Positions 46,155-50,129 of a stretch of DNA of 64,000 bases are shown in pieces. The notes under the pieces were generated by a model, which worked only from the letters and a program-made list of their open reading frames with translations, did no database searches and had not been told where the DNA came from. Each line of letters starts with the position of its first letter. The stretch's first letter is position 1. The stretch is from Candidatus Latescibacterota bacterium. Lineage in GTDB: Bacteria; Latescibacterota; UBA2968. Location of the stretch: positions 5,152,001 through 5,216,000 of the forward strand of contig OZ242010.1 of the NCBI GenBank assembly GCA_965204745.1, given 5' to 3'. The position numbers and the translations under genes are program-made.

Positions 46155-46880
46155 TTATTTTTCCTCGTCGTCTCCGTATTCCTCGCCGCGATAGGCCGCC
46201 CGCACTTGGGCTATCGTGGTCGCCTTTTTCACCCGCGCTTGCAGGGCCTCTTCCGTTGCGATCAACAGGTTGACATTCGCCAGCACCTCGGCCATTCGAT
46301 TCGCCGGAAACTTGACCGCGCCATTTTCATCCATGTGGATGATCTCCCCGGGCGCGACATCCATGCCGCAAATCGACACCGGCACGTTCACCGCTTGCAC
46401 GGCCTGATCCCCGTGCCCGGGGGAGATGCCGGTCAACAAATACTGAAATCCCATCGGCCGGATTTCGTCAATGTCCCGCGATGGCCCGTTCGACACGCAA
46501 CCTATGCAGCCCAACGCCTGCATCGTGGTCGTCATATTGCCGCCCGCAAGCCCGACCTTGCCCGCAATCTCGGCCGGGAACTTCTGCTCCAGCGCGAGGA
46601 TAGTAGGCTTTGGCGACGCGTCCAATGCCTCGGCCACGTCCATGAACGACAACCGCTTAAACCCCGCGTCTGGCAAGCCAAACGCACACGTCACCGCGTA
46701 CCCGCACCGCGCGCCGAGTTCCGGATACATGCACTTGATCGTCTGATCCGTGTACCAATTCTCGGTCCAGGGATTGTAAAGCCCCAAACACAGCGGATTA
46801 TTCGGATACGTCGCCACCACATTGGTGATGGATGGCGTATCGAATTTCTCCAACGCCTTCAAAATTTCCCGATCCGTCAT
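46155..46880 (-). CDS. RraA-like / HMG aldolase family protein
   Basis: 'DTPSITN', 'GGNMT', 'GPSRDIDEI', 'PGEIIHMDENG'. Confidence 0.85.
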   Translation of the reverse strand: MTDREILKALEKFDTPSITNVVATYPNNPLCLGLYNPWTENWYTDQTIKCMYPELGARCGYAVTCAFGLPDAGFKRLSFMDVAEALDASPKPTILALEQKFPAEIAGKVGLAGGNMTTTMQALGCIGCVSNGPSRDIDEIRPMGFQYLLTGISPGHGDQAVQAVNVPVSICGMDVAPGEIIHMDENGAVKFPANRMAEVLANVNLLIATEEALQARVKKATTIAQVRAAYRGEEYGDDEEK

Positions 46881-46966
46881 GACTTCCTCCTTTGAAAATC
46901 AGTGGTGCTCTGCCCGGCCCAAAGGCAAGAGGCAAGAGGTAAGAGGCAAGATACTCTCTTAAAAGG

Positions 46967-47974
46967 TCAAGGGGTTTTCGGGGTGATTCGATAGAATTTT
47001 TCGCCCTCAAAATCTTGGTCATGGCGCAACATGCCCCAGATCGAATGGAGCAACTTTCGCATCACCGCAACGATAGCCTGCAAAGGTTTCTTGCCGCGGG
47101 CGATGAGTTGGTCATAGAAGGCTTTGACATGGCCTTCGTGTCTGATGGCCACCCAGGCAGGCATATAGAGGGCATGGCGGAGGTACTTATTCCCGGTTTT
47201 CGAGATGCGTCTTTGTGGATTGGCGGTTCCGGATTGTTTGGGTTTGGGATCCAGGCCTGCATGTGCGACCCACTGGGGCGGTTGCATCTCCTCTGGCAAA
47301 AGGGTCAACTCGGCCAAGAGCCGCAAGGCACTCGTTTGCGCGATGCCAGGCGTCGAGCAGAGGCGTTGGTAGGCACGCTTGAGGGGCTCATCGTGCAAAA
47401 CGAGATCGAGGGCTTGGCTTTCCAAGTATGCAATCCGGCGTTTGAAGTGTCGAATATTCACCTGAATATCGCGTGCGATGAGACGTGTGCTGCGGATGTG
47501 GTAGCTCTGCGCGTGGTTGCGGCTCTGTTCGCGGATGATCTCCTGCTTGAGTTGGTCAATGCGTCTGGTGAGGGCTTGCAGTTGAAGCCGTTGCTCGCTC
47601 GGCGCTTGCCAAGGCACAAAAGGCATGCGCTCGGCATAGTCGAGGATCAACAACGCATCCTTCGCATCCGTCTTCGCCCGTTGCATGCAGGCTTGGGCGT
47701 ACTTGCTCATCGCTTTGGGATTGACGACCATGACCTTTGTGTGGCGATGCCGATGCAAGGCCAAGGCCACCCCCAAACTGTAAAGCCCGGTCGCTTCGAG
47801 GCACACAGAGACCATGTGCCCGCCCTTCGTGAGCCACTTCAGCAACCGCTTATGCGCTTGGGGATCATTGGCAAAGGTCGCTTGCATGACAGCTTGTCCG
47901 GGTCTGGACAGGGCAACGGACAACGTGCGGGCACTGACATCAATGCCGGCAAAAGCGGGGTGAGATTTCGACAT
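46967..47974 (-). CDS. IS110 family DEDD recombinase/transposase
   Basis: 'GIDVS', 'CLEATG', 'KTDAKDA', 'AGLDP...QSG', 'SKTGNKYLRHALY', 'AVMRKL'. Confidence 0.95.
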   Translation of the reverse strand: MSKSHPAFAGIDVSARTLSVALSRPGQAVMQATFANDPQAHKRLLKWLTKGGHMVSVCLEATGLYSLGVALALHRHRHTKVMVVNPKAMSKYAQACMQRAKTDAKDALLILDYAERMPFVPWQAPSEQRLQLQALTRRIDQLKQEIIREQSRNHAQSYHIRSTRLIARDIQVNIRHFKRRIAYLESQALDLVLHDEPLKRAYQRLCSTPGIAQTSALRLLAELTLLPEEMQPPQWVAHAGLDPKPKQSGTANPQRRISKTGNKYLRHALYMPAWVAIRHEGHVKAFYDQLIARGKKPLQAIVAVMRKLLHSIWGMLRHDQDFEGEKFYRITPKTP

Positions 47975-47999
47975 GGGGGCCTCCTGTGATGAGGGGGTT

Positions 48000-48225
48000 G
48001 TAAGGGATCTGGTGCGCGCTCGGGGTCGCGTCCCGACCATTGACGCCAAGTCTACCGGTCTTGTATATGCAGCCTCAAGGGGCTTAGATACTCTTCGGCA
48101 TAGACCCGGCGGTCGGGGGGCCTATCTTACCTACAAGGTCATCGCCTTCAAGAGGGGCCGGCCTTCCCCGAGCCGGGCATCAAGATGGCTTATCTCGATA
48201 CGAGGGCGCAACTCCTAATTAACCC
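48000..48225 (-). ncRNA. Putative IS110 bridge RNA (ends approximate)
   Basis: Ordered guide-like segments on the minus strand: GGCCCCTCT (48159-48151), AGGTAAG (48132-48126), AGAGTATCT (48094-48086), ATACAAG (48066-48060), matching target and donor junctions. Confidence 0.7.
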
Positions 48226-48318
48226 TTACTTCCAAGATAGCAAGAGGGGAGAGGGCCACCCACAGCACGCTCCCCTAGCTCTTAGGGGTCAGTAGAGCGA
48301 AGGACGCAGTAGGTGTGG

Positions 48319-48900
48319 TCATGGCATCCTCGCCATCTGGGTTTCGAGTCGCTGGGCAAGGGCGTCGAAATCCTCGGGGCACTTCTGTCGGATCGCGCTT
48401 ATTCGGCGTGCGGCTTCGCGTCCGAAGGTATCGCGGCCGCCGCCAAGGCGATTGGCGATGCCGCGTTGTTGTGCCAGAACCTCAAAGTAATTTTCCTTGA
48501 CATGAATCTCTGCGCGAACGTCCGCCCAACGCCAATTATGAGACAAGTTCAAGCCCGCGAGAACCCAAGTCTCGATCTCTTCCCAAGCGTTCTCAGCCAA
48601 GAAAACCCGTTGACCTCCGAACCGCGCCTCGAGCTGGTTGAGCCTTTGTCGTCTCTGTGTGTTGCCATCGCGGTCGACGCATAAGATGAAAATGTCTATC
48701 ATGCCTCGATATTGTTCTACGATTTCTGCCATGCGTCTCGATTTTAGGGCTTCCCCAATGCCGCCGAGCAATGGGTCCTGACAAATTCGAATATGTGCGG
48801 AAGGTCTCGGTCTCTTGAAGGTTCTCATAAGCCGAGAGAAAAGCGGCTTGAGAATGTACTGGTCTTTGCGAAAGTCTTCCGGGATGATGAGGATGTTCAT
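48319..48900 (-). CDS. Hypothetical TOPRIM-like (DUF4276/RloB-like) partner of the ATPase
   Basis: 'ILIIPED', 'ILCVDRDG' DxD, 'EEIETW'; ATGA overlap with the ATPase. Confidence 0.65.
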   Translation of the reverse strand: MNILIIPEDFRKDQYILKPLFSRLMRTFKRPRPSAHIRICQDPLLGGIGEALKSRRMAEIVEQYRGMIDIFILCVDRDGNTQRRQRLNQLEARFGGQRVFLAENAWEEIETWVLAGLNLSHNWRWADVRAEIHVKENYFEVLAQQRGIANRLGGGRDTFGREAARRISAIRQKCPEDFDALAQRLETQMARMP

Positions 48901-50129
48901 TCTCTGATCCTCTCATCTTGAGCACGCGCCAAGTTGAGCATATCTTCCAGCCACCCACTCGTGTGGAGTCGTCCCAAGCCTTGAGATCGCCGCAACTTCT
49001 GTGCGTTGGGCAGACTAGCTACAGATCGGATGACAGCGTCGTCAGTGTCCTCAAGTCGGCAGATGACGGAGGTGTTTTCGAATGTCCTATCATCGATAAG
49101 GGCCAGCATGTCGGGCGAGTGGGTGGTGGTAATCACTTGGATGCCGTTCTGCGCGGTCTGTTTTTCGATCAGTTCGAGGAGTAGCCACAGGCGGTTGGGA
49201 TGAATGCCATTGTCGAGTTCCTCAAAAAAATAAATGCCCGATGGGTTCGTGCCGAGCAACGCGGTCAGCATAGCCAGAAAGCGCAGCGTGCCATCCGACG
49301 CGCTGTAAGCCGATACTTTTCTGCCATTCGCTTCGCAAATCATGAGATGGACCCGTCCACTGGGATCGCGCAAAAACTCAAAACCCGCCACATCCATCTG
49401 CGTGAGTTCCGCCAGCCACTCAGCGAGAATCTCCTGCTGCCGCGGATCAATACAGATTTCCGCCAGTACTGTAGGCAAGTTCTCGCCGCCGTCGCCCAAG
49501 ACAGTCGCATCGGGGAAAGCAGGCACCCGCATCTGTTCCGGCGACAATTCCAGAAAGCGGATGTTGGCGAGAACGCCAATTACTTGCGCGGCGAGATTCC
49601 CATAGTCTTGGTCGTGCCAAACCCCGAGGGGGTAACTTTGAATCTGTGTCAGTGCCGGTTGGTCTGGGCGCACCGCGATTATCTGATTAGTCTCTCCGAG
49701 GCGAAGGCATATAGCTTTTCTATGAGCAAGGCTATCTGGCTGGGTCGTGTAGATCGGCCTCCCATCGGCGTTTAGTTCTTCTCGCGCAACCCTGAATGTA
49801 CCCAGCCTGGTTTTATCGCGTCTGACTTTGATGGCGTAATTAAAGCGGTGATTCTCGACCCGAAATTTGACGCAAAGGGAGAGTGACGGTTGCCCAAAGC
49901 GGATGACTTCATCGGTAGCACCGCGGATCGGTTTCCAACCAGCCTCGTGCTTCCCGCCAAAAATCTCGGCTAAAGTGTAGCCACGACCAATGCCCTGTAA
50001 GAAGCGGAACGCGTCGCGGATGTTGCTCTTGCCGCTGGCGTTCTCTCCCACGAGTACGGTGAACGGACCTACGCGAAGCGTTTCGTCTGCGAAGTTCTTG
50101 AAATTGACGAGTCGGAGCGAAGTGATCAT
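48897..50129 (-). CDS. ABC-type (AAA_21/AAA_15-like) ATPase
   Basis: 'NFKNF', 'GENASGKSN', signature 'SDGT', 'FFEELDNGIHP', 'ITTTHSP'. Confidence 0.9.
   Translation of the reverse strand: MITSLRLVNFKNFADETLRVGPFTVLVGENASGKSNIRDAFRFLQGIGRGYTLAEIFGGKHEAGWKPIRGATDEVIRFGQPSLSLCVKFRVENHRFNYAIKVRRDKTRLGTFRVAREELNADGRPIYTTQPDSLAHRKAICLRLGETNQIIAVRPDQPALTQIQSYPLGVWHDQDYGNLAAQVIGVLANIRFLELSPEQMRVPAFPDATVLGDGGENLPTVLAEICIDPRQQEILAEWLAELTQMDVAGFEFLRDPSGRVHLMICEANGRKVSAYSASDGTLRFLAMLTALLGTNPSGIYFFEELDNGIHPNRLWLLLELIEKQTAQNGIQVITTTHSPDMLALIDDRTFENTSVICRLEDTDDAVIRSVASLPNAQKLRRSQGLGRLHTSGWLEDMLNLARAQDERIRE

Follow-up and report, generated by a model that had tools for sequence, protein, structure and literature searches.

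The window analyzed here, a stretch of 64,000 nucleotides from the genome of an uncultured Latescibacterota bacterium (contig OZ242010.1, positions 5,152,001 to 5,216,000), carries on its minus strand a whole IS110-family element with a recombinase gene and a long noncoding leader. An earlier reading of the letters alone (the original prediction) had proposed that this leader holds the guides of a bridge RNA aimed at a heptamer repeat of the host. From comparison with the other copies in the genome and with relatives across the phylum, we consider it very likely that the element is an IS110-group insertion sequence (IS) with an IS621-type bridge RNA encoded in its leader. The element, its gene and its junctions, both of which read as originally claimed, are as follows.

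46949..48244, minus: whole IS110-family element, from the left core CT to the right core CT (1,296 bp in the window copy)
46967..47974, minus: recombinase gene, 335 residues, with predicted catalytic residues D12, E60, D103, D106 and S248-G249
48251-48234, minus: left junction, CTCCCCT-CT-TGCTATCTT
46957-46944, minus: right junction, AGAGTAT-CT-TGCCT
48245..48251, minus: left target flank CTCCCCT, of which the guide matches the inner five bases CCCCT only
46949..46957, minus: left donor AGAGTAT with the right-hand core CT, 9/9 to the left donor guide
46923..46948, minus: right target TGCCT (46948-46944), then three heptamer units, CTTACCT, CTTGCCT and CTTGCCT

Copies and ends of the element

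The genome is a single contig of 5.48 Mb, in which a blastn search with the window copy returned 66 matches, 52 of them full length. Identity to the window copy is at least 98.8% in 37 of these (the main subfamily), about 96% in 8, 95.2% and 94.6% in one each, and about 88.5% in the other 5. The 335-residue frame is open in 51 of the 52, and the 36 other main-subfamily copies measure 1,295 bp, against 1,296 bp for the copy in the window. We set the ends of the element, ...CT|TGTATCTTGG... and ...AAGAGAGTAT|CT, from the differences between the flanks of the 52 copies. All full-length copies except one begin with CT-TGTATC and end with GAGTAT-CT, and the two ends are not reverse complements of each other (no formal scan for inverted repeats was made). 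The right end AGAGTAT-CT is kept in 75 of 77 tabulated copies; L032 and L035 have AGAGTTTCT instead.

In 16 of the 52 copies, the flanking heptamers stay in phase once the element and a single CT are left out of the count, against 0 to 7 copies at other offsets, which fits insertion at the CT core without target duplication. Between the left core and the ATG lie 268 nt of noncoding sequence, and between the stop codon and the right core lie only 16 nt. The element has the long left end and short right end of the IS110 group, as opposed to the long right end of the IS1111 group.

At G000:C1:1121571-1124187, two copies belonging to separate subfamilies (99.8% and 95.8%) are arranged head to tail with only CT-TACCT-CT between them; the target word that the first copy had left at its end was the insertion site of the second. 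Another main-subfamily copy (G000:C1:5150716-5152017) ends at the first bases of the window; it has a 5-nt leader deletion downstream of the donor loop and is one of two copies with the mismatched right flank CT-CCCGT.

Relatives were found at 25 loci in two Latescibacterota chromosomes (76 to 84% protein identity), together with one match from Gemmatimonadota at 48%. A search of 168 genomes of the phylum at an E value of ≤1e-30 gave matches in 12, down to 52% identity; among the 20 other genomes of the genus, 2 had a match. The family is patchy across the phylum, but it is multicopy where present, and this distribution suggests recent bursts or horizontal spread.

An IS110-group recombinase

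Judged by its sequence, the recombinase belongs to the IS110 group: an N-terminal DEDD RuvC-like domain is followed by a C-terminal Tnp domain, and the catalytic residues are conserved. Pfam matches cover both domains (PF01548, 1.2e-24, residues 9 to 154; PF02371, 4.8e-20, residues 203 to 287), and the protein scores 213.8 bits against the NCBIfam equivalog NF033542, "IS110 family RNA-guided transposase" (cutoff, 140). Its nearest solved structures are ISCro4 (9t56; E value, 7.6e-40) and IS621 (8wt6; E value, 5.8e-36). The D of GIDVS, the E of LEATG, both D residues of KTDAKDA and the S-G of KQSGT align to identical residues of IS621 in 8wt6; the catalytic residues of IS621 are reported as D11, E60, D102, D105 and S241/G242 (PMC11208158). 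The original claim of an IS110 recombinase is borne out. The protein in the window is the main-subfamily consensus and is encoded identically by 34 of the 37 main-subfamily copies.

Predicted bridge RNA fold and guide placement

As far as the IS621 account cited here describes it, the bridge RNA of that element consists of a 5′ stem-loop, a target-binding loop and a donor-binding loop, in this order, and its left guides correspond to the top strand in sense while its right guides are reverse complements, each guide including the core (PMC11208160). The guide strings named in the original prediction all lie where it had put them on the minus strand (GGCCCCTCT at 48159-48151, AGGTAAG at 48132-48126, AGAGTATCT at 48094-48086 and ATACAAG at 48066-48060), as does the hexamer TTGACC (46970-46965). 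The leader features predicted by folding are listed below.

48032..48232, minus: leader region of the predicted bridge RNA of about 200 nt (folding analyses)
48115..48168, minus: target-binding stem-loop (RNAalifold consensus and pair counts)
48159-48149, minus: 5′ internal loop of the target stem-loop, with left target guide CCCCU-CU (48157-48151) and U at 48150
48134-48123, minus: 3′ internal loop of the target stem-loop, with right target guide AGGUAAG (48132-48126) and handshake pair AU (48125-48124)
48045..48110, minus: donor-binding stem-loop (RNAalifold consensus, pair counts and comparison with the IS621 layout)
48095-48085, minus: 5′ internal loop of the donor stem-loop, with left donor guide AGAGUAUCU (48094-48086)
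48070-48058, minus: 3′ internal loop of the donor stem-loop, with 9-nt right donor guide AU-AU-ACAAG (48068-48060) and handshake pair AC (48059-48058)

We folded 15 leaders from 12 guide classes jointly with RNAalifold. The consensus consists of two stem-loops, the target-binding one followed by the donor-binding one, each with a large internal loop, and all four guides fall in these loops and not in stems, as had been anticipated. When the consensus pairs were counted in the individual leaders, 93.5% of the cells were paired, compared with 33 to 55% in controls with slid partners. Compensatory changes were present in 12 of 32 pairs (slid controls, 5 to 7), and none of 500 shuffles was as good. 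The covariation is found mostly in the outer donor helix; the helices of the target loop are nearly invariant and are therefore uninformative either way. On this consensus, the modeled leader fold is of the IS621 bridge-RNA architecture. An early alignment fold of 19 close relatives showed only 2 pairs with compensatory changes and had the core portions of the guides pairing among themselves; it was superseded by the wider set of 15 sequences.

Target guides and insertion sites

If the guides direct insertion, the flanks of the copies should match them. The main guide class, with guides CCCCU-CU and AGGUAAG, comprises 45 copies. Their left flanks are CCCCT (41 copies) and TACCT (4 copies), and their right flanks are TACCT (24), TGCCT (17), CCCGT (2), TACTT (1) and TGCCC (1). 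Counting empty sites genome-wide gave the following occupancies.

CCCCT-CT-TACCT, perfect match to the guides: 20 occupied, 5 empty (80% occupied)
CCCCT-CT-TGCCT, one U:G wobble: 17 occupied, 65 empty (21%)
TACCT-CT-TACCT, two left mismatches: 4 occupied, 83 empty (5%)
TGCCT-CT-TGCCT, the commonest heptamer pair: 0 occupied, 241 empty
CCCCT-CT-CCCCT, right arm mismatched: 0 occupied, 45 empty

The difference in occupancy between the perfect and the wobble site is significant (P = 1.2e-7 by Fisher's exact test). The right target guide had originally been read with one wobble to TGCCT, which is correct for the site of the window copy itself; the word that it matches perfectly is TACCT.

Changes in the flanks go together with changes in the guides. 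The subfamily at about 88% identity has guides CGCCU-CU (UGCCU-CU in one copy) and AAGUAAG and occupies sites of the type CGCCT-CT-TACTT, with exact left flanks in 3 of 5 copies and exact right flanks in 4 of 5. Copy c1297022, with guides UCCCU-CU and AGGUGAG, sits at TCCCT-CT-CACCT. There are four guide classes in this genome and 12 across the phylum. Relatives in G082 carry the right word CT-TTTCT and sit at nonheptamer sites, with that right flank in 6 of 7 copies, and relatives in G091 sit at CTCGCCT-CT-CCC.. in another heptamer variant (right flank CCCGT in 14 of 18 copies). The guides of distant elements likewise match their own flanks, in words such as AGCAT-CT, ATAGT-CT, CT-AACGT and CT-CACGC. 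For a statistical comparison, we took one hand-picked representative per class (12 classes from 10 genomes), using the majority target where there were several copies. Guides were identical to their own flanks at 54 of 60 noncore positions on the left and 54 of 60 on the right, compared with permuted means of 23.0 and 33.0; of 20,000 permutations, 0 were as high as the observed values, a figure that is a strong indication and not a true probability, as the classes are related and hand-picked.

A rival explanation for the clustering of copies in arrays is that arrays tolerate insertions or attract elements in general, so that RNA guidance contributes little. Arrays are indeed numerous, with 533 period-7 arrays detected by Tandem Repeats Finder (about 200 with CT-rich units of the targeted kind and about 300 of the CTGAC type) and 607 runs of at least three CT-type units by pattern count. 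However, within the arrays, occupancy tracks guide complementarity base by base, from 80% through 21% and 5% to 0%, flank changes accompany guide changes, and the G082 relatives with CT-TTTCT guides are found outside heptamers at sites bearing that word. Array tolerance as the main cause is thus improbable in our view.

A second rival denies the guides as such: the leader segments would be protein-binding subterminal repeats or chance matches. To test for chance matches, we made 5,000 dinucleotide shuffles of the 267-nt leader of the window copy. A 7/9 match to the left target appeared in 2,780 shuffles and a 6/7 match to the right target in 1,599. The two target guides are present as originally described but are not significant in this copy on its own; they become solid only via the 52 genomic copies and the relatives. 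The frequency of such matches in shuffles speaks for the rival, as does the absence of RNA runs with the element among the 23 runs listed. On the other side, the strand arrangement matches a bridge RNA exactly (left guides sense, right guides antisense, the core in all), a G:U wobble is tolerated where it would be expected, the guides lie in the loops of a helix scaffold that itself covaries, and the protein belongs to an RNA-guided equivalog. We regard an origin of these segments as binding repeats or coincidences as highly improbable, and we retain the guide reading.

The left guide may extend past the core. In c1297022, a U-to-C change of the loop base that follows the core is accompanied by a T-to-C change of the first base in the right flank. 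This one covarying copy hints that the left guide could read one base further, and the two copies flanked by CCCGT contradict it. Those two copies match the guides in the left half only; "half-match" insertions have been described for IS621 in a 2026 preprint.

A shift of the crossover dinucleotide by one base was considered and dropped, as the junction identity windows TCT (several classes) and CTT (G082) intersect on CT. In a relative of 54% identity in G041, two of the three copies (L081 and L086) have the left junction ...GCGCAT|TGTATC, with AT in place of CT. The left target guide of both copies likewise terminates in AU, and CT is retained at the right junction and in the right guide. 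These copies may be a natural example of a target-side core that does not start with the C of CT.

Donor guides, extra C and predicted junction promoter

The left donor guide equals the right end of the element at 9/9 positions, as originally noted, and such a match was seen in 3 of the 5,000 leader shuffles. The consensus right donor CTTGTAT pairs with the leader ATACAAG at 7/7 positions, and its exact complement occurred in 52 of 5,000 shuffles; the window copy reaches only 4/7. The "CTTG" match of the original prediction is therefore real in this copy and is not a property of the family. A relative in G097 has the left donor AGAAAAC-CT with the guide GGAAAACC, which constitutes covariation on the donor side. 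In 12 of 12 classes, the right donor guide has the form AU-(1 to 3 variable bases)-RCAAG. The right donor guide of IS621 is reported to use 9 RNA bases for 7 donor bases, with two middle bases flipped out (PMC11208160, PMC11208158), and the variable middle bases found here fit this arrangement.

In every class, donor T7 is opposite an A that follows the right target guide. The right donor guide is followed by A in the window element (target position 7 is T), by G in G082 (C) and by G in G091 (T, a wobble). In this pattern, the nucleotides immediately 3′ of the two right guides resemble the handshake guides described in the literature.

Three further features lie at the two ends.

46965..46970, minus: putative −35 hexamer TTGACC in the right end, overlapping the stop codon
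48234..48239, minus: −10-like hexamer TATCTT, with a promoter function proposed by analogy with IS621 (PMC11208160)
48240..48240, minus: extra C in the right-donor arm (CTTG-C-TAT), in the window copy only (1/52)

The window copy alone reads CTTG-C-TATCTT at this point; all other full-length copies have CTTGTATCTT. In public contigs, the extra C is absent from five contigs of run X3 and one of X5 and present in a locus-specific contig of X1. An assembly error was considered and dropped, as the base also occurs in the separately built X1 contig; X1 is possibly the source sample of the genome and hence is not independent proof. The extra base accounts for both the weak right-donor match and the long promoter spacer of this copy.

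In every junction string that we built from the two ends of a copy, the −35 hexamer is kept as TTGACC or TTGAAC. The predicted spacer from TTGACC to TATCTT is 18 nt in the main subfamily, 17 nt both in the 96% subfamily and in the relatives found in other genomes, and 19 nt in the window copy. The 19-nt spacer originally described thus holds for this copy alone. A promoter and terminator scan of the linear element gave one weak internal promoter-like site and no terminator and is uninformative on the junction promoter.

About 60 to 90 nt upstream of four copies in G091 (L042, L047, L052 and L054), there is a short repeat that starts with the first ten bases of the element, CTTGTATCTT, and continues into a GC-rich hairpin (GGACAGGC...GCCTGTCC). 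This repeat, seen again beside several copies, may be the remnant of a solo left end or a small hitchhiker that uses the same donor word.

Evidence against the bridge RNA reading

Several points weigh against the reading of this element as a bridge RNA system, in addition to the absence of an RNA run with the element and the relatedness of the permuted classes. Two of the 45 main-class copies have the right flank CCCGT (2/5 match) and four have the left flank TACCT (3/5), and copy c602770 fits its own guides poorly. The first two bases (GG) of the 9-nt left target guide are unpaired with the flank CT, so that only five noncore left positions are read. The target words lie mainly inside arrays, and array preference and guide preference therefore overlap in part. 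The leader of the single copy does not fold distinctively (minimum free energy, −74.8 kcal/mol; z = −1.38; 18 of 200 shuffles equal), although it has the expected shape, and a permissive Rfam scan of 46500-48700 gave no match at an E value of ≤1. Lastly, no junction of the right end with the left end was seen in Logan contigs (4 runs, over 46600-48600), which drop rare forms. None of these contigs bridged an empty site, and the three contig joints with letters between the ends are heptamer flanks of other copies.

Proposed mechanism and fate of the window copy

By analogy with IS621, to which we look for transcription, circle formation and catalysis, the element would be copied or excised as a circle in which the right end is joined to the left end across the CT core, placing TTGACC 17 to 18 nt upstream of TATCTT. 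This junction promoter would transcribe the RNA of about 200 nt and the recombinase gene. The recombinase, through its DEDD RuvC-like domain and its Tnp domain with the catalytic serine, would then bind the bridge RNA, the donor loop of which would read the circle junction AGAGTAT-CT-TGTAT, while the target loop would read CCCCT-CT-TACCT or, with one U:G wobble allowed, TGCCT. Recombination at the CT core would insert the element without target duplication. As the target words are two adjacent units of the CT-rich heptamer arrays of the host, insertions would build up in these intergenic arrays. Recent preprints argue for copying out rather than cutting out, which would fit the 52 copies.

The window copy had been described as an intact recombinase and guide pair, and its protein and guides are indeed of the consensus; its right-donor arm is mutated by the extra C. 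This base would cost the copy 3 of 7 right-donor pairs and stretch its junction spacer to 19 nt, and the copy is probably a poor donor as a consequence. It could nonetheless act in trans, with its consensus protein and consensus guides.

We lean slightly toward a stronger view, in which the extra C and the 19-nt spacer stop movement altogether and the copy persists as a trans source of protein and RNA. The extra C occurs in one copy of 52 and, at the locus, in the independently built contig of X1 (a sister run of X3); it alters donor positions 12 to 14, with the loss of pairs noted above, and excision of IS621 is reported to rely strictly on recognition of the donor arm (10.64898/2026.08.31.748434). 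Against such a dead end, the right donor guide already has two unpaired middle bases, so that a one-base bulge in the DNA might be tolerated, and the insertion creates an extended −10 (TGn-TATCTT) that could offset the long spacer; the possible identity of X1 with the source sample also detracts from its value as proof.

Taken together, the genome may represent a natural titration series of bridge-RNA specificity, in which sublineages of one IS110 element retuned their loops to different CT-rich heptamer variants, every pair lost lowers occupancy by a step, reading by the left guide may extend one base beyond the core, and the arrays may serve as a shared, renewable safe harbor on which several unrelated IS families converge. 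We put this combined picture forward tentatively and think it rather less probable than not. If it were true, arrays and mobile elements would be coevolving, and an orthologue with a 12-bp readout would be a distinct starting point for engineering.

Host arrays and neighboring genes

A G-rich motif, CACCGAAGGGGGTTGGGCGGGGYGG, is found genome-wide (for example, at plus-strand starts 296831, 1426442 and 1571296 of G000:C1), its core pattern matching 116 times, compared with about 31 matches expected from composition. The motif often has a CT-rich heptamer array on one side and one of the CTGAC type on the other, and the two kinds of arrays may be arms of one composite intergenic repeat.

The element in the window is flanked on one side by the gene of an AAA_21-type ATPase, accompanied by a small uncharacterized partner, and on the other by an RraA-like gene (PF03737, 1.7e-20), just downstream of the heptamer units at 46923..46948. 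Directly upstream of the insertion (48319-50129, minus), the ATPase of 410 residues (AAA_21/AAA_15 type; PF13304, 4.1e-33) overlaps by 4 bases a 193-residue protein without a Pfam match, a layout that resembles a two-gene defense-type pair.

Significance

The element is a further IS621-type bridge-RNA member of IS110, with a mechanism described in 2024, and is not a new kind. It had been presented as new, and this holds for the individual pair; the kind has been cataloged since 2024, and the protein is already named in NCBIfam. We found no paper joining Latescibacter and IS110, and the supplementary bridge-RNA predictions of Durrant et al. may already list the element. Its value lies in the data, with 52 near-identical copies and about 25 relatives, rather than in a new question. 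The guide classes provide an in-genome readout of the mismatches tolerated by a natural bridge RNA: a U:G wobble at right position 2 has about a quarter of the occupancy of the perfect site, and two mismatches in the left arm are rarely tolerated. The findings also indicate that a tandem microsatellite can be a bridge-RNA target, explain part of the repeat and IS landscape of uncultured, probably sponge-associated Latescibacterota, and offer an orthologue with a 7-nt right target guide to surveys of bridge recombinases.

Comparison with known systems

The closest described counterpart is IS621 of Escherichia coli, with a 177-nt bridge RNA, and the comparison extends to those aspects covered by the cited reports (PMC11208160, PMC11208158). 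Both elements have a two-domain DEDD/Ser recombinase with aligned catalytic residues, and a long left and a short right end with a CT core on both sides. The −35 hexamer lies in the right end and the −10 hexamer in the left end, both hexamers being putative in our element. In both, the RNA (predicted in our case) begins with a 5′ hairpin, after which come the target and donor stem-loops; the guides lie in internal loops, the left ones reading the bottom strand and the right ones the top strand. Also common to both are a 9-nt right donor guide, the middle bases of which are unpaired, and handshake bases that follow each right guide on its 3′ side. The word of the right donor (C8 T9 T10 G11 T12 A13 T14) is identical, donor positions 6 and 7 are A-T in both, and the natural targets of both are intergenic repeats of the host.

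There are also differences. IS621 is a distant relative of the window recombinase by phmmer (E value, 5.8e-36). The right target guide covers the core plus 5 bases (7 nt) here and the core plus 2 (4 nt) in IS621, longer right target guides being reported for some IS621 orthologues (PMC11208160), whereas on the left, five noncore positions are read here and seven in IS621. The left guide here may, on the basis of a single covarying copy, pair one base beyond the core, unlike in IS621. The target is a 7-bp microsatellite here and a repetitive extragenic palindromic (REP) element in IS621, and the host is an uncultured Latescibacterota bacterium with 52 copies in one genome as opposed to E. coli.

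Among solved structures, the best match is to ISCro4, a bridge recombinase of the IS110 group, over residues 7 to 326; this comparison is of proteins only. ISPpu9 and ISPpu10 of Pseudomonas putida (PMC12288879, 10.64898/2026.03.19.712850) are, from their published descriptions, likewise multicopy IS110 elements whose insertions all lie in repeated intergenic sequences of the host. Compared by description only, they insert into palindromic sequences of the REP type or into single conserved intergenic sequences, whereas the element described here targets tandem heptamers.

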